From Candidatus Heimdallarchaeota archaeon B3_Heim (GTDB lineage: Archaea > Asgardarchaeota > Heimdallarchaeia > Hodarchaeales > Hodarchaeaceae), in assembly GCA_003144275.1 (NCBI GenBank), contig NJBF01000008.1, forward strand, positions 39,232 to 71,231: DNA of 32,000 nt, read 5' to 3'. A program made the position numbers and the translations under genes. Of this stretch, positions 278 through 16,962 are shown piece by piece. Under the pieces are notes generated by a model. That model saw nothing but the letters and a program-made list of their open reading frames with translations, made no database searches and had not been told where the DNA came from. Every line of letters starts with the position of its first letter. Position 1 is the first letter of the stretch.

Positions 278-1327
278 TTGACAACAATTGACATTTTGAA
301 CTTACTCTCCGAACTTGTGGATATTGCAGGTCCTGTTGGACGAGAAGAGGCAGTTCAACATTTTTTAGCAAGTAAATGGGAAAAATTAAACTTTAAAACT
401 GAAATTGATAAGATAGGAAACCTATACGGACGAATGAACGGGAAGGGCCCTCATTGGGCAATCGTGTCACATTCTGATACAATTGGGTTTATTGTACAAC
501 AGATCTTAGCGAATGGCTTCCTGAAAATGGCGTTCAATACTGCTGCGACCACTCCCGACGCGCGATTTCTTGCAGGATCCACTCTACGTTTTCTCACCAA
601 TAACTCAAAAAACATTCTAGGTTACTTCGGATTAAGAAGTGGTCATCTTGCAGGAATTGAGGGAAAGAAAAAAGCCGTTTTGTTTGATGATATGTTTGTA
701 GACGTGGGAGTAAGTTCAATTAAGGAAGTTACTGATTTAGGAATAGATATTGGTACTCCAGCAGTTTTTTATTCATCTGTGCAACAAATTCAAAACAATA
801 TTGTTGGCCCTTCGATGGATAATCGTGTTGGATCGACCATTCAAACTATTCTTGCTCAAAATTTGAAACAAAACAATATTCAACCAAATTTAACGTTGAT
901 TTCGACCGTTCAAGAGGAAATCGGAATGAAAGGGGCAGCTGCTGCAGCTAATAGGGGAGACTTTGATGGAGTGATAAACTTAGATGTGGGGTTAACTGGA
1001 GATATTCCTCCTTCAAAGAATGATTACCTTTCAACTAAACTTGGTTCTGGACCGATTCTTGTTGTGAAAGACTTTTCAATTCACTATTCCCATTCACTCT
1101 TTACAATGATTGCTAAACTCGCAGCGCAAGAAAATCTTCCATTCCAGAGAGCCGTATTCAAAAACTACAACACTGATGGTATGTATTTCTTCATGAATGG
1201 ACAACCAACAATTACTATTTCCGTACCATGTAGATACACTCACACGAACTTTGAAACAATTAAGGTATCTGATGTTCTACATACGATAAATCTCTTGGAA
1301 GCGGTGCTTTCAGCATCCTTGACCTAG
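278..1327 (+). CDS. M42 family metallopeptidase (glutamyl aminopeptidase/endoglucanase-like)
   Basis: 349 aa ORF, TTG start. Motifs SHSDTIGF, MDNRVG, VQEEIGMKGA, LDVG and CRYTHT match the M42 di-metal ligand pattern. Confidence 0.9.
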   Translation: MTTIDILNLLSELVDIAGPVGREEAVQHFLASKWEKLNFKTEIDKIGNLYGRMNGKGPHWAIVSHSDTIGFIVQQILANGFLKMAFNTAATTPDARFLAGSTLRFLTNNSKNILGYFGLRSGHLAGIEGKKKAVLFDDMFVDVGVSSIKEVTDLGIDIGTPAVFYSSVQQIQNNIVGPSMDNRVGSTIQTILAQNLKQNNIQPNLTLISTVQEEIGMKGAAAAANRGDFDGVINLDVGLTGDIPPSKNDYLSTKLGSGPILVVKDFSIHYSHSLFTMIAKLAAQENLPFQRAVFKNYNTDGMYFFMNGQPTITISVPCRYTHTNFETIKVSDVLHTINLLEAVLSASLT

Positions 1328-1382: not shown

Positions 1383-3095
1383 GTGCTCAAAGTGAATCAG
1401 AATAAAATAATTCTTGTAAAATTGGGTGGAAGCTTGATTACCTATAAACAAGACGAGGATCGAATTAAAGAGTATATACTGATTATTGAACGATTTCGAT
1501 GTGGAGCGGCATCATTAGAAGACTTAACGGCATCAATATCCCATCTCCTGAATACAAGTACACTTAAGGAGATTTTTCGCACACTCAACATCTATATCAA
1601 AAGTAATTCTGCCGCTAAAGTTATCGTTATACACGGAGCAGGTTCTATTGGGCATTCTCTTGTTTTACATCTCCTGAAAACAGAAACAGATTTAGAGAAT
1701 GTCTATCCCGTTATCAAACTTGCAGTTTCCATTCAGAACCAGTTAATTACAGGATTAGGCATCCAACTAGGTCTTAATGCGATTTCGCTTTCGTCTCATC
1801 AAATCATGCTCGGGTATCCCACTGATAAAACCTCATCTCCCCGAATGGATGCAGCGGATTTATCAACCCTAGAAACAATAGTCAGCAATACAGATTCTGT
1901 TCCTATATTTTTCGGAGATGTAGGACTTACTCAGGGAACGCATACGGAATTACTAGGTGAATGGAAAGTCTTCTCTGGGGATTTAGTACCAAACGCGCTT
2001 GCACGAAGTTTCTTAAATTTAGAAATTGAAAAAGTGATATTCTTAACGCAAGTCGAGGGAAAAATGACTGGTATTTACTCAAAAGATCCACGTTTGGCTG
2101 ATTCCGAACTGATTACACGAATTGAGGTAGGATCTCGTGCAAATCGATATTTCAATTCCAATAATCACGAAATCCATTTTCAAAAGAATGCGAGTAAGTC
2201 AAAATATGATGTAACGGGAGCGATGGAAGAGAAATTAAGAAATTTGATAGACTTAGCTTATCAAAATATCACTAGCTGGGTTATTGGGTTTGAAGAATTT
2301 GATAAAGCTTTACGAGGAGAAGCAGTAGGAACTAGAGTACTGCCTGACAAAGAACTTGATACTAAAGTCGTTTTTCTAGGACGAGGAGATGCGTTTGGTT
2401 CAGGTGGATTCAAAAGTGCATCGATCTTTGTTGAACTTAAAAATAAAATTCTTTTACTAGATTGTGGGCCTCATACACTTCAGGCGCTAAAAGCATCTGG
2501 GAGAGATACTACTCAAGTTGATTGGATTGTGATCACCCACTTTCACGGAGATCATTTCGGAGGAATTCCTTATTTTTTACTAGAATCTACTTTTCAAGTA
2601 CAAAGAAAGAAACCTTTGACAATATTTGGGCCTCCTGGAATTGAAAAAGCGGTAAATGATCTGTTCACGACATTGTATAAGCGAGAAGCATCTAAAGCGC
2701 GTCCATTCCCTATTGTATACCAAGAAATTACACCTGATCATTCCTTTGAAGATGATGAGATATCAATAAAAGCATTTTCTATGAATCACACACCAGAGGC
2801 ACAAGGGTACAGGTTACATTGTAATTCCACTATTATTGCTTATACAGGCGATACAGGATGGACGGATAATTTGATCCCATTAATTTCTGACGCACAACTA
2901 GCAATTATAGAATGTAATTTCTACCAAAGTCAATTTGAAACTCATTTAAATTGGGAGGAGATCCTCAAAATATATCACCTAGCTGAGAAAACAGCGGTAA
3001 TTCACTTGGGAGCTGAAATGGTTCCAGAAATAAATACCTTGATTGGAGAAAAAGGACTTTTGATTCCACTAGAAGGTCAAACTATAAGAATCTGA
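1383..3095 (+). CDS. Fusion protein: N-terminal amino-acid-kinase fold (isopentenyl phosphate kinase-like) plus C-terminal metallo-beta-lactamase fold (RNase Z-like)
   Basis: Uninterrupted 570 aa ORF, GTG start. Residues ~9-320 carry LVKLGGSLIT, HGAGSIGH, FFGDV, SGDLVPNALA and LTQVEGKMTGIYSKDP. Residues ~327-570 carry FLGRGDAFGSGG, THFHGDHFGG, YTGDTGW and AVIHLG. Confidence 0.88.
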   Translation: MLKVNQNKIILVKLGGSLITYKQDEDRIKEYILIIERFRCGAASLEDLTASISHLLNTSTLKEIFRTLNIYIKSNSAAKVIVIHGAGSIGHSLVLHLLKTETDLENVYPVIKLAVSIQNQLITGLGIQLGLNAISLSSHQIMLGYPTDKTSSPRMDAADLSTLETIVSNTDSVPIFFGDVGLTQGTHTELLGEWKVFSGDLVPNALARSFLNLEIEKVIFLTQVEGKMTGIYSKDPRLADSELITRIEVGSRANRYFNSNNHEIHFQKNASKSKYDVTGAMEEKLRNLIDLAYQNITSWVIGFEEFDKALRGEAVGTRVLPDKELDTKVVFLGRGDAFGSGGFKSASIFVELKNKILLLDCGPHTLQALKASGRDTTQVDWIVITHFHGDHFGGIPYFLLESTFQVQRKKPLTIFGPPGIEKAVNDLFTTLYKREASKARPFPIVYQEITPDHSFEDDEISIKAFSMNHTPEAQGYRLHCNSTIIAYTGDTGWTDNLIPLISDAQLAIIECNFYQSQFETHLNWEEILKIYHLAEKTAVIHLGAEMVPEINTLIGEKGLLIPLEGQTIRI

Positions 3096-3107
3096 AACAT
3101 CTATCAC

Positions 3108-3350
3108 TTATTTTTTGGTTGGTTCGAGTTTCCAAACAATATTTTTTCTTTTTCCGTCACCTGATTGAACTACACTATAAGAAATTTTTCCATCCATTCG
3201 CATTTGGGTTAAAATCATGGGTATCCTATCGGCACAGTCTTGATTAAAGATACTTACACGATCAACAATTTCAGTAGTAGTAGCTTCATGGAGTTCAAGT
3301 AAAACGACCTCTATCCATTTTTCTGTTCCTGAGGTATCTGGGCCGTCCAT
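3108..3350 (-). CDS. Small protein, possible winged-helix fold
   Basis: 80 aa ORF filling the gap between neighbours. Pattern EATTTEIVDRVSIFNQDCADRIPMILTQMRMDGKISYSV looks HTH-like. Confidence 0.55.
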   Translation of the reverse strand: MDGPDTSGTEKWIEVVLLELHEATTTEIVDRVSIFNQDCADRIPMILTQMRMDGKISYSVVQSGDGKRKNIVWKLEPTKK

Positions 3351-3608: not shown

Positions 3609-4187
3609 ATGATTTTTGGAAGGAAACGAATGGTGAAAAACGAAATTAAGCATGTATTAAAGATACTGTTACTTGGGGACGGGGCGGTCGGAAAAACTTC
3701 ACTAATCTTAAGGTTTATTGAAAATAAATTTAAGGATGAGTATTCAGTAAGTTTAGGGGTTGATTTTCTCACTAAAACGATTACCTTTATTGATGAGGAT
3801 GATATTAAACGAATAGTCTCCTTACAAGTTTGGGACATAGCTGGACAGGCAAGGCATGTATCATACTCCCATCTCTACTTAAAAGGAGCCTTGGGAGCAT
3901 TTTATGTATTCGACCTGACGAGAAAAGAGACTCTTGAACAGATTCAGAATCGTTGGCAGCTTCAGGCCCTTAAAGCATCACCTAATCATTTGGGTATCCT
4001 TATAGGAAATAAAGCAGATTTAATCAAGGAAAGAGCAATATCCAAATCGCAGTTAAAAAAAATTGTCGATAGTATGCACGTTATTGAGATATTTGAAACC
4101 TCTGCAAAGACAGGTAGAAATGTCAACAAAGCATTCCAAAAATTAACAACAGAAATTCTCCGGGTCAAACCAAAAAAGTTCCTGTGA
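3609..4187 (+). CDS. Rab/Ras-like small GTPase
   Basis: 192 aa. G1 GDGAVGKTS (nt 3675-3701), switch I SLGVDF, G3 WDIAGQ, G4 GNKADL, G5 ETSAKTG. Met8 (nt 3630) is an alternative start. Confidence 0.95.
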   Translation: MIFGRKRMVKNEIKHVLKILLLGDGAVGKTSLILRFIENKFKDEYSVSLGVDFLTKTITFIDEDDIKRIVSLQVWDIAGQARHVSYSHLYLKGALGAFYVFDLTRKETLEQIQNRWQLQALKASPNHLGILIGNKADLIKERAISKSQLKKIVDSMHVIEIFETSAKTGRNVNKAFQKLTTEILRVKPKKFL

Positions 4188-4196
4188 AGTGAAAAT

Positions 4197-4967
4197 ATGT
4201 CTCCATTAACTGAATTTAAAGCAGTAAAAGCTTTTTTCATCTTTGAGAAAGACCAGGGCACTACTTTATTCACACGATCCTATGAGCGAAGTTCAACTGC
4301 TCCTGATGCTCATCTTGTTGTTGCATTTTTAACCGCGATGTTTTCTTTTGCTAAAACTTCATCCTTGAGTGATCTGAAAGTAGTAGATATGACAGACATT
4401 CGATTTTCCTTCATAGAAAAAAATGGATTAATTTTTGCCGTTTTAGTTTCCCCCCTTGTCTCTCCACTTGATATCCAATTTAAATTATCTACAATTGCGA
4501 GTTTATTCTTTTCAGATTATGGAAATCAGTTAAGCTCGATTGATATTGTCGATACAGAAATGTTTTCTGATTTTAATGACTCTGTTGATGAAATTTTCGG
4601 GGGAGAGACTCGGCAAATGCTTAAATCATCAAAAAATGCCGCCTTGTTTTATTTAAAAAAATTAGTTTCCAAGGAAGAAACAGGAGCACGGGGTGCCATG
4701 ATATTATCATTTACGGGAGATATTCTACTTGAGTACAAAATGGACCAACCCCGAATGGCAGCCGCGATTCGTATTTTGAATGTTGGTACGTATATGACGA
4801 ACCTACGTTATTTGGTTGTAGCATCAGAATCAACTAATCTTGTTGCGTATAAAATAAGTGAAGGCCTACTACTTGCGGTCGATGGCCATCCTTCATTCGG
4901 ACTTGAAGATTTAGTTGTCAATGTGTCCGAAACTGTGAAACAAATTAAAGAAATTATTCCTCATTAA
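4197..4967 (+). CDS. Hypothetical protein with possible longin-like/FUZ-MON1-HPS-type N-terminal fold
   Basis: 256 aa, starts 9 nt after the GTPase stop. N-terminus KAFFIFEKDQGTTLFTRSY..., followed by FSFIEKNGLIFAVLVSP, has a longin/roadblock-like strand pattern. Confidence 0.6.
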   Translation: MSPLTEFKAVKAFFIFEKDQGTTLFTRSYERSSTAPDAHLVVAFLTAMFSFAKTSSLSDLKVVDMTDIRFSFIEKNGLIFAVLVSPLVSPLDIQFKLSTIASLFFSDYGNQLSSIDIVDTEMFSDFNDSVDEIFGGETRQMLKSSKNAALFYLKKLVSKEETGARGAMILSFTGDILLEYKMDQPRMAAAIRILNVGTYMTNLRYLVVASESTNLVAYKISEGLLLAVDGHPSFGLEDLVVNVSETVKQIKEIIPH

Positions 4968-7559: not shown

Positions 7560-8666
7560 ATGAGAAGTAAACCTGATCAGAATAACAATTTAGGTGTTAG
7601 TATGGTTAATTTTGATTTAAATTCGTTAAAACAGACCCAACGTGAATTATCCGAAATTATTGGCGTTTCAGGACATGAAGCACCTGTTGTTGATTATATA
7701 AAAGCCCAAATTGAAGGATTAGTCGATAAAATGTGGGTTGACCCCTTGGGTTCATTACTGGTGGTAAAAAAAGGAGCGAATCCAACGGAGAAAATTTTGC
7801 TTGATGCACACATGGATGAAATTGGATTTATGATAAGCTATATTGAACCTAAAGGATTCTTACGTTTTGTCCCAATTGGCGGATGGGATAGTCGTATATT
7901 ACTTGGCCAAGCCGTTAAAATTCTTGGAAAGGACAATAGAACATATGATGGCATAACTGGATCTAAACCTCCTCATTTAACTACACAGGAAGAACGTAAA
8001 ATTGCTGTAAACATCTCGGATATGTACATCGACACAGGAATGTCAGCAGAGCAAATTGATAAAGCAGAAATTCATATTGGATCAGTAGGAACCCTATATG
8101 ATCCGTTTGTCGAATTTCCAAACGATATGATTAGAGGAAAAGCTTTCGATGATAGAACAGGAGTAAATGTCCTAATTCAAATAATTAAAGAATTTTCAGA
8201 AATAAAACACGAGGATACACTTCTATTTAGTTTTACTATGGGAGAAGAAGTAGGAGGTAGAGGTGCAGGTCCTGCTGCTTTCTCTTTGGATCCAACATTA
8301 GCGATAGCAATCGAAAACACAACTGCTGCAGATGTACCAGGAATTCGTGATTCAGAATGTCCAGCATATATTGGAAAAGGGCCAGCAATCTCAGTTGCAG
8401 ATCGATCAATGATCGCACATCCCAAAGTCAATAATCGATTAATTTTGAATGCAGAACATGAGAAAATTCCTTTTCATATGAAAAAACCGATCTTTGGGGG
8501 TACAAATGCTGGTATCATTCATAAATCACGGGCAGGTATTCCATCCTCGGTTGTTTCCGTACCTTGTCGTTATATTCACTCACCCACATCCTTATTATCA
8601 TTAAATGACATTTACCATACAGTTCAATTAATCTCAGCATTTATTCGTAATCCTACGTCTTCTTGA
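7560..8666 (+). CDS. M42 family metallopeptidase (second copy)
   Basis: 368 aa with DAHMDEIGFM, AFDDRTGVN, TMGEEVGGRGA, IENTTAADVPG and CRYIHS. Confidence 0.94.
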   Translation: MRSKPDQNNNLGVSMVNFDLNSLKQTQRELSEIIGVSGHEAPVVDYIKAQIEGLVDKMWVDPLGSLLVVKKGANPTEKILLDAHMDEIGFMISYIEPKGFLRFVPIGGWDSRILLGQAVKILGKDNRTYDGITGSKPPHLTTQEERKIAVNISDMYIDTGMSAEQIDKAEIHIGSVGTLYDPFVEFPNDMIRGKAFDDRTGVNVLIQIIKEFSEIKHEDTLLFSFTMGEEVGGRGAGPAAFSLDPTLAIAIENTTAADVPGIRDSECPAYIGKGPAISVADRSMIAHPKVNNRLILNAEHEKIPFHMKKPIFGGTNAGIIHKSRAGIPSSVVSVPCRYIHSPTSLLSLNDIYHTVQLISAFIRNPTSS

Positions 8667-12293: not shown

Positions 12294-13100
12294 TCATTTG
12301 GGCATTTCATAACTGTAGCTGAGATCTGGGAATGATTTGTTTCGTACTTCTTTGTTATACTCTTGGATTGCAGATAATATCTGATCCTTGAGATTAGCGT
12401 ATCTTTTAACAAATTTAGCCTTGAAATCAAAATAACCAAGCATATCATAAGTTACCAGGACTTGTCCAGAGCAATAAGGGCCAGCACCAATCCCAATAGT
12501 GGGAATAGATATCGATTCAGTAATTTCTTTAGCAACTTCCCATGGAATAGCTTCTAATACTAATGAAAAAATTCCTGCTTCCTCTAAAGCACGAGCCTCT
12601 TCAACTAACTTCTTTGCCGTTTCTTCTGATCTACCTTGTACCTTAAACCCACCGAATTTATGAAAAGACTGAGGTGTTAAACCCAAATGGCCCATGACAG
12701 GAATTCCTGCATCCAATATTCCTTCAATCGCTGAAATACGTTCACTACCTCCTTCTAGTTTGATAGCTTCAGCACGTCCTAATTGCATCAGTTTTACCGA
12801 GTTTTTAATTGCTTCTTCACGTGAGACTTGAAACGTTCCAAAAGGAAGATCTCCAATCACCATGGCTGATTTGGCACCCCTAGCTACAGCTTGTGTATGT
12901 CGGATAGAATCTTCCAAAGTTACCTGTAGGGTGGTTTTTTGGCCGTAAACTACCATACCCATAGTATCGCCTACTAAAAGCATGTCAGTTTCAGCCTCAT
13001 TAAGAATAGAGGCCATTACATAATCATACGCTGTAAGCATAGTAATTTTTTTTCCAGAATCATACATTTCCATTATATCTAATACTGTTTTCTTTTTCAA
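12294..13100 (-). CDS. panB: 3-methyl-2-oxobutanoate (ketopantoate) hydroxymethyltransferase
   Basis: ITMLTAYDYVMASILNEAETDMLLVGDTMGMVVYG, VMGHLGLTPQS and IPTIGIGAGPYCSGQVLVTYDMLG. Confidence 0.96.
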   Translation of the reverse strand: MKKKTVLDIMEMYDSGKKITMLTAYDYVMASILNEAETDMLLVGDTMGMVVYGQKTTLQVTLEDSIRHTQAVARGAKSAMVIGDLPFGTFQVSREEAIKNSVKLMQLGRAEAIKLEGGSERISAIEGILDAGIPVMGHLGLTPQSFHKFGGFKVQGRSEETAKKLVEEARALEEAGIFSLVLEAIPWEVAKEITESISIPTIGIGAGPYCSGQVLVTYDMLGYFDFKAKFVKRYANLKDQILSAIQEYNKEVRNKSFPDLSYSYEMPK

Positions 13101-13109
13101 ATCTTCACC

Positions 13110-13892
13110 TCATATTACTAATTTATCACTAGTCGCTAAAGTATTCAAACGCTCTGACATAAACTTTAAAGCATCTTGTAGAAGTTTTTCATTACTATAG
13201 TGTTTCAATCGCTCTTTCAGTTGATTTTTGGGGAGTTGAACGAATTCCTCGGCATATTTTATCATTTCAGGTACTGCTCTGATTAAATTATTCGTAATCG
13301 AAACGTTTGCTGTGAGCGATGTACGAGATATTGGATTAAGATCAACAGTTACAACCGATTTATTCATTCGCCTTAAAGCCTGAGTGCGATCTCCATCCTC
13401 TAATGGCACAAACACGCAATCTGAAATGGCAATACCCCTAGAATCTACTATACGTCTAAGATGAGAGATTTCTGCTATAGTTTCTTGATATTCTGGATCA
13501 AGTCCTAATATCAAACCAGCCCCTGCGTCTATTAATTTCTTTTTTATCGCCTGTTCTCTCTCCTGTGATCGATAAAATAGATTAATTTCAAGTGGAGCTT
13601 TTAGAATGTTGCTAAGATCTACAATTTCCTTCGGACATAGAGCTGCGACATTTCCGTTCACAGAAATTATGGGTTTACCCGCTGAAAGAAGATATAGTAC
13701 AGCAAATTCTTCCTGTTTGAGGGCAAACTTTGGAGTATTCTCACCCAGGATATAATCAAAAGCCTCGCCTCTTCCATGAGCGATTAGTCCTGCCTCTGCA
13801 ACAATTTTTTGATGCATCCCACTAATGATAGCATCTCGAACGGTCAACGATACATAACATGGGTGATCTTTTGGAATTTCATGATTTGACAT
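13110..13892 (-). CDS. 4-phosphopantoate--beta-alanine ligase (archaeal phosphopantothenate synthetase)
   Basis: IPKDHPCYVSLTVRDAIISGMHQKIVAEAGLIAHGRGEAFDYILGE and SRTSLTANVSITNNLIRAVPEM. Internal ATG at 13890-13892 overlaps the upstream stop as TAATG and is preferred over the track start at 13922. Confidence 0.92.
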   Translation of the reverse strand: MSNHEIPKDHPCYVSLTVRDAIISGMHQKIVAEAGLIAHGRGEAFDYILGENTPKFALKQEEFAVLYLLSAGKPIISVNGNVAALCPKEIVDLSNILKAPLEINLFYRSQEREQAIKKKLIDAGAGLILGLDPEYQETIAEISHLRRIVDSRGIAISDCVFVPLEDGDRTQALRRMNKSVVTVDLNPISRTSLTANVSITNNLIRAVPEMIKYAEEFVQLPKNQLKERLKHYSNEKLLQDALKFMSERLNTLATSDKLVI

Positions 13893-14776
13893 TAACTTGT
13901 CCTCTTTATTGTTGTTGTACATATAGTTTCTGGATGAATTAGGTCAGGAGAGATATTCACCTCAGCCAGTTCGTCTTCTTCATGATAAAATAAGAATAAA
14001 GCATCGCCTAACATAATTTGGGCACCGATAACATTTGTAGGAAGATTGGTCAATATAGTTTGAAGTTGAGGAGACCACAATTGGACCCCACGAGTAAATT
14101 CTGATGTATAATGAACAAAATGATCGAATTCAGGTTCTTTAATTAAAGCCTCAATTAATTTCGAGCTAGTCCTATTGACCGATACTCGTCGTACTGGATC
14201 TGATAATATGGAGGAGGTGGAAATAGTTCCTAAGGATACAGTAGCAAATTTCCAATCATCTTCCTTACGCATAGCTATGGTCTTACCATATCCAGGAGCA
14301 CCTTCCTTGGTTCGTATTTCTAACCCTCCTTGAAATAAACCAATCACATCACCCAAACCGGATTTTGTCAAGACTTCTGCTTTATGGGCAACTTGAAATA
14401 ACTCAAGAGTGCTTAAGTCAAGCTCAAAATATTCATTTATGCAATAAGCTGTTCCCAAAGCTCCAGCAGCAGAGGCACCAAAACCACTCTTGGTAGGTAC
14501 TTCGAAATTATGACTTATGAGAAAGTTTCTTTGATCTCTCTCGGGAACTAGTAAATTGATAATTTTAACTGTTACCATAGAATTCGATAATGCTTGTTGT
14601 TGCTCATTAAATAGTACAATTACTGAGGAGCTATCAGATTCCTGTATCGAAGTCGTTACTCCTCTTTGTATGGATATACCAGCCCCCCTTGATCCAATTT
14701 TTAATAATTCGCTAGATTGGTCTATTATTTCAAAAAGTCCAGTGAGATGGGCAGCTACCCAGAATTCAGACTTCAT
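13892..14776 (-). CDS. Pantoate kinase (GHMP family)
   Basis: Adjacent to the phosphopantothenate synthetase. GHMP motif PTKSGFGASAAGALGTAYCINEYF, and AEVLTKSGLGDVIGLFQGGLEIRTKEGAPG. Confidence 0.92.
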   Translation of the reverse strand: MKSEFWVAAHLTGLFEIIDQSSELLKIGSRGAGISIQRGVTTSIQESDSSSVIVLFNEQQQALSNSMVTVKIINLLVPERDQRNFLISHNFEVPTKSGFGASAAGALGTAYCINEYFELDLSTLELFQVAHKAEVLTKSGLGDVIGLFQGGLEIRTKEGAPGYGKTIAMRKEDDWKFATVSLGTISTSSILSDPVRRVSVNRTSSKLIEALIKEPEFDHFVHYTSEFTRGVQLWSPQLQTILTNLPTNVIGAQIMLGDALFLFYHEEDELAEVNISPDLIHPETICTTTIKRTS

Positions 14777-14794
14777 GGTTAGATTAACTCAAAT

Positions 14795-15712
14795 CTAGTG
14801 ATGATTTCTTTCGAGATGTCGGATCAAATCTGTAATTGCCGAATTAATAGGTGCGTTCAATCCATATGATCGACTTTCTCTTGCAATAAATCCGTTCATG
14901 AAATCGATCTCTGTGCGACGTCCTCGTTCAACATCCTGAAGCATACTGCACTTATTATCTTGAGTTTTATTGATCACTTCTTTAATAAAATCACGAGAAG
15001 CAGAAAAATCTTCATCTGGAAGAAGATGAGTTGCTAGCGCTATTCCTTCATCTAAGATTGCATTAAATATACGTACAAAAGATGGCCGCTTCAATATTTC
15101 ACCATTCTTCGAATGAAGTATTGTACCCAGAGGGCAGATGGCAGCATTAGCAAGGAGTTTATACCACATTTTCAGCTGGATATTCTGAGTTTCCTTAATT
15201 TGAAAACCCGAAGAAGAAAGAATTTTTTCGACTTGACTACTAAATCCGTTTCCTTTACCTGAAACAATCCCAAAAGAAGTCTTACCGAATGCAACATGTT
15301 TTACAACAGCTGGTTGTATCAACTCTGCTGCTTCTGTAGTAACGGCTCGATAAATTGGATTTTCTGGTAAGACTTTTTTAAATATATCCTCATTTCCCAT
15401 TCCATTCTGGATTAAAAAAATAGGAGTTTCAATATTTAAGCCGTTAGATAAAGATTCTGCTACTGTTTGATTATCGTAAGCTTTTGTAGTAACAAATATT
15501 GCATCAGAATTTTGTTTAGTCGGGTTGTATTCAGTTTTTGCTGGGAAATATGAAACAATATTGGTTCCCTGTTCTAGAATTGTGAGTCCTTTTTCTTGGA
15601 TTTTTTTTATGTGAGCTTTTCGTCCTACAACATCGACATCAAATCCTGAGTAGGCAACTCTTCCTGCAAATAAAGAACCGATACTTCCTGCTCCAATAAC
15701 AGATATATTCAT
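14795..15712 (-). CDS. panE: Ketopantoate reductase (2-dehydropantoate 2-reductase)
   Basis: MNISVIGAGSIGSLFAGRVA Rossmann motif, FVTTKAYDN, LIQNGMGNE, KMWYKLLANAAICPLG and GRRTEIDFMNGFI. Confidence 0.94.
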   Translation of the reverse strand: MNISVIGAGSIGSLFAGRVAYSGFDVDVVGRKAHIKKIQEKGLTILEQGTNIVSYFPAKTEYNPTKQNSDAIFVTTKAYDNQTVAESLSNGLNIETPIFLIQNGMGNEDIFKKVLPENPIYRAVTTEAAELIQPAVVKHVAFGKTSFGIVSGKGNGFSSQVEKILSSSGFQIKETQNIQLKMWYKLLANAAICPLGTILHSKNGEILKRPSFVRIFNAILDEGIALATHLLPDEDFSASRDFIKEVINKTQDNKCSMLQDVERGRRTEIDFMNGFIARESRSYGLNAPINSAITDLIRHLERNHH

Positions 15713-16962
15713 TGTAAATCCTTCCTCCTATTGAACTCTACTGAAATTATATTTGCTAGCTCATGCCCGAGAGTTTGCTTTGACCCCTTTAATTCAAGAA
15801 CTTCCTGCTGGTCTCTTACAATGAATAATTCATTAGTTTTGGACACAAATCCTTTATTTGCTTCTCCAACCCAATTTGCACACACAATATTCACTTTATT
15901 CTCTTCTAGAAACTGAGCTGCACGAGAAATCAGTTTTTTTTTACTAATACCAACTTCTGCCTTATAGGTAACAATAAAGAGAGACGGAAATTCGTTTCTT
16001 ATTGTCTTCACAATCTTCATTGTAGGTTTTAACGAAATTGATAATTCATTCTGGCGGGACGGAATCTTTCCTTGTTGAAAGGTTGGTTGATAATCAGCTA
16101 CAGCAGCTACAGAAATTAGCCCATCCACCTTTCCATTCGATAGTTGCTCTTTTACTTGCTGGTACATTTCGGAGGTAGATCTAACCACCGTTACTGAAGA
16201 CGAAATAAGTTTCTGATCTATTGTATTTCCTTCTCCGAGGATGAATGAAACGTCTGCACCTAGCTTCTGCAATGCTTTTACAACATAAAGGGCTGACAAT
16301 CCACTGGAAGGATTGGAAAGGAATCTAACATCATCAAAATACTCACGAGTTGCTCCACCCGTCACAATAAATTTAGTACCTTGTAACGGACGAGGAGCAC
16401 TTAATAATGAAAATATCTGATCCATTAATCTCTCTAAGGGGGGAAATTTGTGTTTTTTCTCCTCTTCATCACTTGAGAGAAAGTGTACGTCTAAGTGCTT
16501 GAGATACTCCATGTTTTTCTGGGTTATAGGGTTGTCAAGTAATACATTATGGGCTGCAGGAACGATAAGGCACGGAATATTTGCTCCAATGCTGGCTAAA
16601 GCCGTTAAAGAAACTGGACCATCAGCAACCCCAGATGCAAGTTTAGAGATGGTATTAGCCGTGGCAGGACACAGTAAGTATAAATCTACCTTTTGTTCTG
16701 GATCCACGCTCCACTTAATATGTTCGGATAATCCTGAAATTTCAGTATAAGGAAGTTTGCCCATTGACCATGTCAAAGAATCGACAGTAACAAATCGTAA
16801 GGCATCTTCAGAAAGAACTACAATAGGTTCTCCAGAATGACGAAGAATTTCCCGCACTAAATGGGGGGTTTCGATTGCAGCGATCGAACCTGTAACGCCA
16901 ATTAGGATACGCTTACCCTCTAAAAGCTTACCCTTGGTTCCATAAATTTCGGCGATGCTCAT
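15709..16962 (-). CDS. coaBC: Bifunctional phosphopantothenoylcysteine decarboxylase / phosphopantothenate--cysteine ligase
   Basis: ILIGVTGSIAAIETPHLVREI, LYLLCPATANTISKLASGVADG, PAAHNVLLDNP, then KFIVTGGATREYFDDVRFLSNPSSG and VKTIRNEFPSLFIVTYKAE. Confidence 0.95.
   Translation of the reverse strand: MSIAEIYGTKGKLLEGKRILIGVTGSIAAIETPHLVREILRHSGEPIVVLSEDALRFVTVDSLTWSMGKLPYTEISGLSEHIKWSVDPEQKVDLYLLCPATANTISKLASGVADGPVSLTALASIGANIPCLIVPAAHNVLLDNPITQKNMEYLKHLDVHFLSSDEEEKKHKFPPLERLMDQIFSLLSAPRPLQGTKFIVTGGATREYFDDVRFLSNPSSGLSALYVVKALQKLGADVSFILGEGNTIDQKLISSSVTVVRSTSEMYQQVKEQLSNGKVDGLISVAAVADYQPTFQQGKIPSRQNELSISLKPTMKIVKTIRNEFPSLFIVTYKAEVGISKKKLISRAAQFLEENKVNIVCANWVGEANKGFVSKTNELFIVRDQQEVLELKGSKQTLGHELANIISVEFNRRKDLQ

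Follow-up and report, generated by a model that had tools for sequence, protein, structure and literature searches.

Hodarchaeales (Asgard archaea), proposed as the archaeal order closest to eukaryotes, carry a real and conserved fusion gene, in which an isopentenyl phosphate kinase (IPK)-like domain is joined in frame to a metallo-beta-lactamase (MBL) domain of the RNase Z-like kind that lacks the flexible arm. The gene was analysed in a stretch of 32,000 nucleotides (the window) from Candidatus Heimdallarchaeota archaeon B3_Heim. The architecture is a new one built from known superfamilies, and no description of an IPK-type kinase paired with an arm-less RNase Z-like MBL was found in the literature, which agrees with the original prediction, where no standard fusion of the two was known. 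We consider it probable that the gene is genuinely bifunctional, with an Asgard-type IPK coupled to an arm-less phosphodiesterase and the hydrolase acting on the same prenyl-phosphate pool.

The fusion is a single conserved gene

The gene had been predicted as one open reading frame of 570 codons, and the frame is indeed free of stops from nt 1383 to nt 3095, with all the motifs quoted for it in place (Table 1), namely LVKLGGSLIT at residues 11-20, SGDLVP...VIFLTQVEGKMTGIYSKDP at residues 198-236 and HFHGDH at residues 386-391 (nt 2538-2555). A second GTG at nt 1392 is the start in most homologs and gives a form of 567 aa. The proposed in-frame union of an IPK-like kinase with a complete metallo-beta-lactamase was borne out by Pfam matches to both halves far above chance: PF00696 (AA_kinase) covered residues 8-301 with 62-65 bits (cutoff 24.9) and PF12706 (Lactamase_B_2) residues 357-538 with 71-73 bits (cutoff 27), while PF00753 (Lactamase_B) matched with 62-64 bits. 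Database labels for the fusion are automatic only and read 'MBL fold metallo-hydrolase', 'amino acid kinase family protein' or 'ribonuclease BN/isopentenyl phosphate kinase'.

Table 1. Features of the fusion gene, in positions of the window
Feature	Position (nt)	Strand	Remarks
Whole fusion gene	1383..3095	+	570 codons plus stop, GTG start, no internal stop
IPK-like amino-acid-kinase domain	1383..2342	+	residues 1 to ~320, end at invariant G316-T317; PF00696, IPPK_Arch 83 bits, 8u0k and 3ll9
K13-L-G-G-S17 phosphate-binding strand/loop	1419..1433	+	K13, G15, G16 invariant
Insertion 1	1446..1607	+	~residues 22-75, three helices, not in canonical IPKs
H84-G-A-G-S-I-G-H91 loop	1632..1655	+	H91 invariant, aligned to catalytic His of IPKs
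Alkyl-pocket R1 (Y108), R2 (I111)	1704..1715	+	via 8u0k alignment
Alkyl-pocket R3 (V180), R4 (V196) and S198-G-D200 with catalytic Asp	1920..1982	+	
Insertion 2	2118..2207	+	~residues 246-275; beta-hairpin and low-confidence loop, not in canonical IPKs
D276-V-T-G-A-M...K284, ATP-site motif of kinase C-lobe	2208..2234	+	D276, V277, T278, K284 invariant
Inter-domain linker	2343..2363	+	residues 321-327, PDKELDT
Exosite-less RNase Z-like MBL domain	2364..3092	+	residues 328-570; PF12706, PF00753; Foldseek 1zkp, 6kns, 7u2r
G333-R-G-D-A-F-G-S-G-G342 loop	2379..2408	+	family signature in place of RNase Z PxKxRN
L-L-D360-C-G, MBL motif I	2454..2468	+	
T385-H-F-H-G-D-H391, MBL motif II	2535..2555	+	metal ligands
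H469, MBL motif III	2787..2789	+	
Site of RNase Z flexible arm (~55 residues), arm absent	2817..2837	+	residues 479-485
G-D490-T-G-W, MBL motif IV	2847..2861	+	
E510-C-N-F (RNase Z: HEAT) and H521-L-N (HST motif counterpart)	2910..2951	+	
H541, MBL motif V	3003..3005	+	

The full-length fused architecture was present in about 60 (63) clusters of homologs, with 43-98% identity, which carry the names Hodarchaeales, Heimdallarchaeota or Hodarchaeota. These are independently assembled MAG sequences from four sources (NCBI, JGI, ENA and Logan), and a genome scan for the fusion gave at least two Hodarchaeota loci among the matches listed. As judged from these sequences, the fusion appears restricted to Hodarchaeales. 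The catalytic residues of both halves are invariant among the fused homologs, mean pairwise identity within the family is 52.8% and 53.4% for the two halves, and the divergence of the kinase half is correlated with that of the MBL half (r = 0.85); purifying selection acts equally on both.

The only split relative, P0075 from locus L001, is called as two ORFs and could be taken as a sign that assembly or gene calling had merged two neighbouring genes. Its break, however, sits inside the kinase domain, away from the domain boundary, where the frame shifts within a stretch of ambiguous bases, and is itself an assembly artefact. The close relatives are otherwise fused, and in some 60 clusters from all four sources, some of them on contigs as long as 3.2 and 4.9 Mb, the ORF runs unbroken through the domain junction. 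P0027, for example, lies in the complete Hodarchaeales genome CP070695.1 (4.94 Mb). An artefactual origin of the fusion was therefore rejected and has practically no chance of being correct.

The linker of about 7 residues is nearly constant in length across the family and poorly conserved in sequence. The AlphaFold model of the fusion has a pLDDT of 89.6 and a pTM of 0.87, which, together with the short linker, points to a fixed packing of the two domains. Proteins of either parent family are homodimers.

The kinase half resembles a divergent isopentenyl phosphate kinase

The residues and the predicted fold of the N-terminal half suggest a divergent IPK of Asgard type. phmmer searches of this half against the PDB returned IPKs only, and Foldseek matched it to 8u0k (TMt 0.83), 3ll9, 7lnt and 3k4o, with TMt values from 0.74 to 0.84. 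With the archaeal IPKs of Thermococcus paralvinellae (8U0K), Methanothermobacter (3LL9) and M. jannaschii (3K4O), represented by NF040647, which are its best structural matches (TMt 0.81-0.84), it has in common the fold, the KxGGS, HGxGSxGH, SGD, DVTG and Lys motifs, the catalytic His and Asp, and the four-residue C5 alkyl pocket. All fused homologs compared (30/30) carry H91, D200, K13 and K284, and so do canonical IPKs, in which the roles of the catalytic His/Asp and Lys residues have been described (PMC8500459). The alkyl pocket of IPKs follows the pattern Y/F/A at R1, I/V/T at R2, I/V/T at R3 and I/V at R4 (PMC8500459). The counts in 30 fused homologs were Y21/F8/S1 at R1, I21/V9 at R2, V27/I2/M1 at R3 and V30 at R4, and the fused kinase (Y/F, I/V, V, V) matches the published pattern, the R1 and R2 assignments depending on the alignment with 8u0k at ~25% identity. 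Three observations uphold the IPK-like identity originally proposed for the N-terminus: the catalytic residues do not vary, the pocket is of IPK type, and the solved structures closest to it are IPKs. None of the other kinase families is a better fit.

Canonical IPKs consist of one domain of ~260 aa, whereas the fusion carries two insertions within the kinase in addition to a hydrolase of 243 residues. The segment between strand 1 and the HGAGS loop, which had been suspected to be longer than in typical IPKs, does contain ~30 extra residues (insertion 1; alignment A2), with three helices predicted at residues 25-39, 45-55 and 58-74 at pLDDT above 90. Insertion 2 adds about 20 residues relative to canonical IPKs. 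Insertion 1 is also present in the stand-alone Asgard kinases P0195, P0197 and P0199, and the two insertions are common only to the fusion and a few stand-alone Asgard kinases.

The IPK equivalog model NF040647 (IPPK_Arch, NCBIfam) scored the fused kinase at 80-83 bits, below its cutoff of 120 bits; the corresponding scores were 101 for P0197, 109 for P0203, 126 for P0195 and 179 for a Thermoprotei IPK. Both the score of 83 bits and the two insertions count against the bifunctional explanation that we prefer. A second, stand-alone IPK-like clade (the P0197 group), which is likewise a point against that explanation, occurs in some Hodarchaeota MAGs, and its pocket residues are W, T, M and V. 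Because this clade exists, the fused kinase could be a paralog with another substrate. The clade is rare, however, with ~8 clusters against ~63 fused ones, and none of the large contigs or assemblies containing the fusion was seen to have it.

The hydrolase half probably belongs to an arm-less group

The C-terminal half had been called RNase Z-like, and this description holds for the catalytic core only, as this half has neither flexible arm nor PxKxRN motif and the RNase Z model TIGR02651 (NCBIfam) gives it 118-122 bits against a cutoff of 292.95. The metal ligands H386, H388, D390, H391, H469, D490 and H541 are all invariant, and T385 or S385 followed by HxHxDH was present in 30/30 fused homologs; since [T/S]HxHxDH is also found in RNase Z (ITHMHGDH), this motif cannot separate class-II phosphodiesterases (PDEs) from RNase Z. 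At 243 aa the domain is shorter than RNase Z (~300-320 aa), and when it is aligned with RNase Z of B. subtilis (1y44), chain residues 151-205 have no counterpart, 150 being followed directly by 206. The B. subtilis GIPAKARN was aligned to GDAFGSGGFKSAS in the fusion. The fused family has the GxGDAFxSGG loop as a conserved feature in common with stand-alone MBL relatives of ~245 aa, of which the nearest named ones are mostly bacterial.

Foldseek placed arm-less structures at the top of the matches to the MBL half (1zkp, 6kns/6knt, 7u2r, 7u2s and 7t28; E 1e-19 to 1e-14, TMt 0.77-0.81), whereas tRNA-bound RNase Z entries with the arm gave a lower TMt of 0.68-0.69. On these sequence comparisons and the structural model, the MBL half would belong to the arm-less group of YhfI, BA1088 and Apyc1-type class-II phosphodiesterases, not to tRNase Z. 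YhfI, Rv1339 and Apyc1 are cNMP phosphodiesterases. The fusion has in common with B. subtilis YhfI (6KNS/6KNT), B. anthracis BA1088 (1ZKP), M. tuberculosis Rv1339 and phage Apyc1 (7U2R, 7U2S, 7T28) a core of ~245 residues without the exosite, a complete set of ligands for two metals and [T/S]HxHxDH. It differs from them in the GxGDAFxSGG loop and the attached kinase, and identity to the fused MBL is only ~20%, with scores below the cutoffs of both NF041851 (cyclic-nucleotide-degrading PDE; 53-56 bits, cutoff 400) and PF23023 (Apyc1; 33-35 bits, cutoff 50). An anti-phage, Apyc1-like role found no support in this Pfam score or in the housekeeping context. A PhnP/phosphonate or FomA-type reading was rejected, with scores far under the cutoffs (33-35 bits for TIGR03307, PhnP, cutoff 272) and phn genes absent from both the window and the syntenic loci.

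Were the C-terminal domain the tRNase Z of the organism, the fusion would tie tRNA 3' processing to isoprenoid synthesis. RNase Z is the best match in NCBIfam and among PDB sequences, B. subtilis RNase Z (RNase Z/ElaC, 1Y44) being the best for residues 328-481, with the metal-binding motifs in common and an HST-like His521 in the fusion, and the JGI annotation reads 'ribonuclease BN'. However, tRNase Z has the arm, PxKxRN and HEAT, where the fusion lacks the exosite, carries GDAFGSGG in place of PxKxRN and xECN for HEAT, and reaches 122 of the 293 bits. Processing of the 3' end of tRNA is thus unlikely, as the arm and PxKxRN are missing and the RNase Z score lies below its cutoff. The arm-less enzymes are the better structural matches, and the exosite-less NZ protein of Haloferax volcanii left pre-tRNA uncleaved (PMC3296008). 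We therefore regard a tRNase Z as highly improbable, and the 'ribonuclease' label as an annotation trap for what is probably not a tRNA-processing enzyme.

The Haloferax protein, HVO_2763 ('NZ', arCOG00500), is of the same arm-less kind, the likeness resting on its family description as an exosite-less RNase Z-like MBL, and its gene adjoins the IPK gene HVO_2762 (PMC3296008). Activities on tRNA, bpNPP and other substrates were tested for NZ and none was seen (PMC3296008), and it has no assigned function in PMC8305020 either. HVO_2762 and HVO_2763 are separate monocistronic genes, whereas the fusion is one gene, and the authors saw no conserved neighbourhood (PMC3296008). A member of this kind, its function unassigned despite direct study, thus sits beside an IPK gene, which we count in favour of the bifunctional explanation.

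Possible coupling of the two activities

According to the bifunctional explanation, the kinase half would spend ATP to turn IP or DMAP, both C5 prenyl monophosphates, into the diphosphate. The invariant residues His91, Asp200, Lys13 and Lys284 would serve in this reaction, together with a small hydrophobic pocket formed by Y108, I111, V180 and V196. Hodarchaeales genomes contain a mixture of archaeal-type and eukaryote-type mevalonate (MVA) enzymes, with AcnX+AMPD as well as PMK+DMD (PMC11052028). As they encode the IP-producing AcnX and AMPD, they have a use for IPK activity. The MBL half would be a phosphodiesterase with a binuclear metal site, one of the arm-less RNase Z-like enzymes (YhfI, BA1088, Rv1339 and the Apyc1-type 'atypical class-II PDE'), cleaving a small phosphodiester or possibly a phosphoanhydride; pre-tRNA would not be expected as a substrate without the exosite. 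The hydrolase could then free the monophosphate for re-phosphorylation by the kinase, or oppose the kinase. The weakest step in this explanation is the link between the two halves: the prenyl phosphates handled by the kinase are the most likely target of the hydrolase as well, as suggested by the predicted fixed two-domain body and by IPK fusions elsewhere with MVK and AcnX. Coupling to a hydrolase for a phosphorylated or phosphodiester intermediate, as originally suggested, may thus apply. The nearest characterised MBL relatives use cyclic nucleotides, not prenyl phosphates, which is a point against it. If the stable fusion is read as a Rosetta-stone hint, the widespread orphan arm-less RNase Z-like hydrolases would be tied to prenyl-phosphate metabolism.

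A housekeeping IPK could instead be merely tethered to a phosphodiesterase for cyclic or other nucleotides, the two having no metabolite in common and at most co-regulation or scaffolding between them. The closest characterised MBL relatives (cAMP/cGMP/cNMP phosphodiesterases), the stand-alone MBL relatives found in many bacteria without isoprenoid context, and the lack of mevalonate-pathway genes around the fusion, both in the window and in four loci syntenic with it, would allow this. We consider mere tethering rather unlikely, in view of the short linker of fixed length and the rigid packing predicted (pTM 0.87), the tightly correlated divergence of the halves across an order-level clade, the joining of pathway partners in IPK fusions elsewhere, and scores far off the cNMP-PDE and Apyc1 cutoffs (56 against 400 bits and 34 against 50). 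A salvage role, in which the phosphodiesterase would yield a phosphomonoester that an IPK-like paralog converts to a diphosphate, leaving a stand-alone P0197-type kinase or another enzyme as the true IPK, appears distinctly unlikely. It would fit the product of a phosphodiesterase, a phosphomonoester being the substrate class of IPK/FomA-type kinases, the broad promiscuity of IPKs on alkyl monophosphates (PMC8500459), the score of the fused kinase under the equivalog cutoff and the separate IPK-like clade in Hodarchaeota. The IPK pocket pattern, however, fits the fused kinase better than that clade (W, T, M, V), and the clade is far the rarer of the two and was not seen on the large contigs and assemblies with the fusion.

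A more specific form of coupling, which we think unlikely though somewhat less so than the salvage role, is that the MBL hydrolyses IPP/DMAPP or a prenyl phosphodiester to IP/DMAP and the fused kinase reverses this step, giving a switch within one polypeptide that would set the IP:IPP (DMAP:DMAPP) balance. In plants, IPK and a Nudix hydrolase work in opposing directions on IP/DMAP and IPP/DMAPP and set flux, alongside the classical MVA route (PMC8248349), of which Hodarchaeales too have enzymes (PMK+DMD). The plant enzymes, however, are separate proteins and the hydrolase is a Nudix enzyme and not an MBL. If true, this kinase/phosphohydrolase switch would amount to the plant module in fused form, operating in organisms with both archaeal-type and eukaryote-type mevalonate routes. 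DMAP is linked to the prenyl-FMN cofactor, and the fusion could then supply DMAP for this cofactor of the UbiD-type decarboxylase AMPD. The orphan family of RNase Z-like proteins without the exosite, among them Haloferax NZ with its neighbouring IPK gene, would also gain a function for the first time.

Gene neighbourhoods and other IPK fusions

In a search with a profile built from the MBL half of the fusion, none of the canonical IPK genes had a relative of that half within ~10 kb (0/78 loci), and a looser HxHxDH scan around IPK genes gave only RNase J (beta-CASP), in operons of Methanobacteriales. A general linkage of IPK and MBL genes across archaea was thus rejected. Together with the lack of nearby mevalonate genes, the 0/78 result counts against the bifunctional explanation. 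Elsewhere, IPK was found fused to an AcnX-swivel domain in Myxococcota (L071) and to MVK in Methanobacterium (L026), and the Methanobacteriales operon reads MVK-IPK-IDI2-RNase J-GGPPS. The partners in these fusions and operons are known MVA enzymes or the beta-CASP RNase J, which is of a different MBL subfamily, and none has an arm-less RNase Z-like domain. The neighbourhoods of the stand-alone MBL relatives P0078, P0079 and P0088 gave no functional pointer. No MBL gene was seen beside the stand-alone long kinases in the loci inspected, where the neighbours were HAD or alpha/beta hydrolases and an unknown gene of 367 aa.

Kinase and metallo-beta-lactamase domains are fused in Hodarchaeales

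The window carries, at nt 1383-3095 of the forward strand, a single ORF of 570 codons with a GTG start and without an internal stop, confirming the uninterrupted reading frame of the original prediction, and every motif named there, including HGAGSIGH and HFHGDH, was found where it had been placed. In Pfam searches both domains scored far over their gathering scores, AA_kinase (PF00696) at residues 8-301 and Lactamase_B_2/Lactamase_B at residues ~342-538, and the predicted domain calls were right at the superfamily level. The start is ambiguous: an in-frame GTG stands at 1383 and another 9 nt on at 1392, the latter being the annotated start of most homologs (567 aa); a TATA-like AT-rich stretch, TTTACTATAAATTA, lies just 5' of the fusion start at ~1360-1376.

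A homolog search covering 5.8 billion clustered proteins returned 74 matches, 63 of them full-length or nearly so (541-577 aa, 98-100% coverage, 43-98% identity) with both Pfam domains present, and the predicted fusion is thereby real. The named fused homologs belong to Hodarchaeales, Heimdallarchaeota or Hodarchaeota MAGs, and the assemblies behind the whole set come from NCBI, JGI, ENA and Logan, contigs of 3.2 and 4.9 Mb among them. The window protein falls into one cluster with a 570-aa protein of 'Heimdallarchaeota archaeon B3_Heim'. The fusion is Hodarchaeales-specific and its domain architecture is new, the component families being known. One relative, P0075, appears as two ORFs with a break inside the kinase domain (query residues 258 to 281). 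At this locus (L001 3944-4004, on a GCA_012974705.1 contig) ambiguous bases, translated as X, together with a frameshift in the kinase domain yield ORF calls of 274 and 290 aa that stand as separate proteins in databases; a natural split was rejected, as a break at ambiguous bases with a change of frame is an assembly defect.

Across 30 aligned sequences the catalytic residues were invariant in the kinase part and in the metallo-beta-lactamase (MBL) part, and both catalytic centres are intact. Mean pairwise identity was 52.8% in the former and 53.4% in the latter, and the pairwise identities of the two parts correlated (r = 0.85). Near-equal identities, their correlation and the invariant residues make up the pattern of a single gene in which purifying selection has acted on both halves ever since they were joined. 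Residues 321-327 form a short linker whose length hardly varies and whose sequence is poorly conserved.

Features of the fusion gene, its surroundings and the compared loci
Feature	Position	Strand	Remarks
HGAGSIGH	residues 84-91; window 1632-1655	+	kinase motif
HFHGDH	residues 386-391; window 2538-2555	+	MBL motif
M42 glutamyl-aminopeptidase paralogs (two)	window 278-1327 and 7560-8666	+	bracket the region
80-aa ORF	window 3108-3350	-	no family match; convergent, directly 3' of fusion; kept in L001-L003, L095
Ras/Rab-like small GTPase	window 3609-4187	+	after 80-aa ORF
256-aa ORF	window 4197-4967	+	without known family; tightly linked to GTPase
Archaeal coenzyme A biosynthesis operon	window 12294-16962	-	complete; syntenic in L002, L003
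Stand-alone kinase synteny	L084 8888-11742; L093 1247-4159; L094 1888-4746		class-I tRNA synthetase, ~367-aa gene, kinase, convergent HAD hydrolase
Isoprenoid operon with beta-CASP RNase J (~450 aa, THGHLDHIGA)	L013 7960-14198; also ~31 loci among L008-L082		genes overlapping, one strand
Calcineurin-like metallophosphoesterase (Metallophos_2)	L056 7225-8863		convergent, flanks canonical IPK; Halobacteriales MAG
Aconitase-X swivel + IPK fusion	L071 9131-10780		550 aa, uninterrupted ORF; Myxococcota MAG
Mevalonate kinase (GHMP) + IPK fusion	L026 7904-9649		582 aa, uninterrupted ORF; Methanobacterium MAG

The kinase half is related to isopentenyl phosphate kinases

The only solved relatives of the kinase half by sequence were isopentenyl phosphate kinases (IPKs; 8u0k at 1e-7, 3ll9), and Foldseek aligned the model to IPKs with target-normalised TM scores of 0.74-0.84. 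The NCBIfam IPK equivalog gave 80-83 bits, under its 120-bit cutoff. HMMER, run with the kinase half exhaustively over 1.84 billion representatives, matched only 107 proteins at E <= 1e-3. Besides the fused family these were canonical IPKs (~260 aa), which aligned only from residue ~55-78 on, and three stand-alone kinases, P0195, P0197 and P0199 (320-340 aa), which aligned end to end with the fused kinase half. The fused and long stand-alone kinases share two insertions absent from the canonical IPKs in the alignment of all three groups, ~30 residues after strand 1 and ~20 residues preceding the DVTG motif. The former, three confident helices in the AlphaFold2 model, bears out the suspicion that residues 20-80 were longer than in typical IPKs.

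Characterised IPKs are only 25-38% identical to one another; their catalysis employs a His and an Asp, and the alkyl pocket consists of four residues, R1 Y/F/A, R2 I/V/T, R3 I/V/T and R4 I/V (PMC8500459). H91, D200, K13 and K284 are invariant across the fused family. Pocket positions were transferred via alignment to T. paralvinellae IPK, and among 30 fused sequences read Y21/F8/S1 at R1, I21/V9 at R2, V27/I2/M1 at R3 and V30 at R4; the GD and SGD motifs fix the placement of R3 and R4, that of R1 and R2 depending on a low-identity alignment. This pocket is consistent with C5 prenyl-phosphate binding, and matches the published pattern better than that of the long stand-alone kinases (W/T/M/V).

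The long stand-alone kinases also come from Hodarchaeota/Asgard MAGs, score higher with the IPK model (101 bits for the P0197 group, 126 bits for P0195), group as a clade of their own, without the fused kinases, in a crude NJ tree and are rarer (~8 clusters vs ~63 fused). None was found on fusion-bearing assemblies or large contigs; either the two are alternatives in different lineages, or their co-occurrence is masked by MAG incompleteness. Such co-occurrence is the main uncertainty in regarding the fused kinase as 'the' IPK. The ~367-aa gene lying only 10-13 bp 5' of the stand-alone kinase had no Pfam or PDB match. A profile of the Asgard stand-alone kinases also picked up IPK homologs of ~280 aa encoded by snakes and lizards (Candoia, Ahaetulla, Pantherophis, Varanus and Thamnophis; P0371, P0374, P0375, P0379, P0382), with E values of 1e-16 to 1e-8.

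The MBL half is an arm-less RNase Z-like protein

By sequence the MBL half matched RNase Z best (1y44 at 5e-16) and scored 118-122 bits with TIGR02651, whose cutoff is 293. GIPAKARN of RNase Z, its PxKxRN motif, aligned with GDAFGSGGFKSAS, and the alignment to the B. subtilis enzyme skips from chain residue 150 to 206, omitting the flexible tRNA-binding arm (exosite) that RNase Z possesses. The top Foldseek ranks were the arm-less BA1088 (1zkp), YhfI (6kns/6knt) and then Apyc1 (7u2r, 7u2s, 7t28), at TMt ~0.8; PhnP-family enzymes were also matched, and tRNA-bound RNase Z entries with the arm scored 0.68-0.69. With the exosite missing, the low bit score and the higher rank of arm-less folds, tRNase Z identity was rejected. 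Thus the original 'RNase Z-like' label holds for the superfamily and not for RNase Z itself, and 'exosite-less RNase Z-like phosphodiesterase' is preferred. Outside the fused family the nearest relatives stand alone at 243-259 aa (33-41% identity) and, where named, are mostly bacterial; they share with the MBL half the GxGDAFxSGG loop, LLDCG, HxHGDHFGG(I/L)P, GDTxW, E187, H198 and H218. Sequence and model together predict an active-looking arm-less phosphodiesterase.

Possible coupling of the two activities

AlphaFold2, run on the 570-residue chain with the 30-sequence alignment, gave a mean pLDDT of 89.6 and a pTM of 0.87, which for two domains on a ~7-residue linker implies a defined, rigid packing in the model. 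Hodarchaeales MAGs encode PMK and DMD as well as AcnX and AMPD of the mevalonate routes (PMC11052028); therefore IP should form and an IPK activity would be of use. The N-domain would phosphorylate IP/DMAP with ATP and the C-domain would hydrolyse a small phosphodiester, possibly a phosphoanhydride; that both act on one prenyl-phosphate pool is the most weakly inferred step. The two might work in sequence, a diester being cut to the monophosphate and then phosphorylated to the diphosphate, or in opposition, the hydrolase counteracting the kinase by analogy with the plant IPK+Nudix module, which sets IP/IPP ratios (PMC8248349). The fusion gives a directly testable functional hypothesis.

The main rival is that an IPK and a cyclic-nucleotide phosphodiesterase are simply tethered together. 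YhfI, Rv1339, CpdA and Apyc1 have been described as homodimeric binuclear-zinc 'atypical class-II' enzymes of this kind with a [T/S]HxHxDH motif; the window protein has ITHFHGDH and the fused family T or S there, a motif that is non-discriminating since RNase Z also matches it, and the MBL half falls short of the curated cutoffs for both the cNMP-PDE equivalog and Apyc1. In the two apparent IPK fusions found elsewhere, with an Aconitase-X swivel and with mevalonate kinase, the partner is a pathway enzyme; mevalonate kinase and IPK are separate genes at other Methanobacterium loci.

In Haloferax volcanii an exosite-less RNase Z-like 'NZ' protein, HVO_2763 (arCOG00500), adjoins the IPK gene HVO_2762 and proved inactive on pre-tRNA, bpNPP and other test substrates (PMC3296008); it was without assigned function as of 2021 (PMC8305020). 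No gene related to the fused MBL lay within ~10 kb of IPK at any of the 78 canonical IPK loci among the matches listed for the genome collection. A looser scan found at least ~32 loci (Methanobacteriales and one Methanothrix) with a beta-CASP RNase J in the IPK operon, in the order Memo-MVK-IPK-IDI2-RNase J-GGPP synthase, and at the Halobacteriales locus L056 a calcineurin-like phosphoesterase adjoins IPK instead of the MBL protein of H. volcanii. Proximity of IPK to metal phosphoesterases thus recurs, with differing families and possibly by coincidence.

Genomic surroundings

The upstream M42 gene, whose end lies 55 bp 5' of the fusion gene, has syntenic counterparts in L001 and L003. The coenzyme A operon comprises ketopantoate hydroxymethyltransferase, phosphopantothenate synthetase (PPS_PS), a pantoate-kinase-like GHMP kinase, ketopantoate reductase and CoaBC (DFP/flavoprotein). 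The pair formed by the GTPase and the 256-aa ORF is conserved at every Hodarchaeales locus examined.
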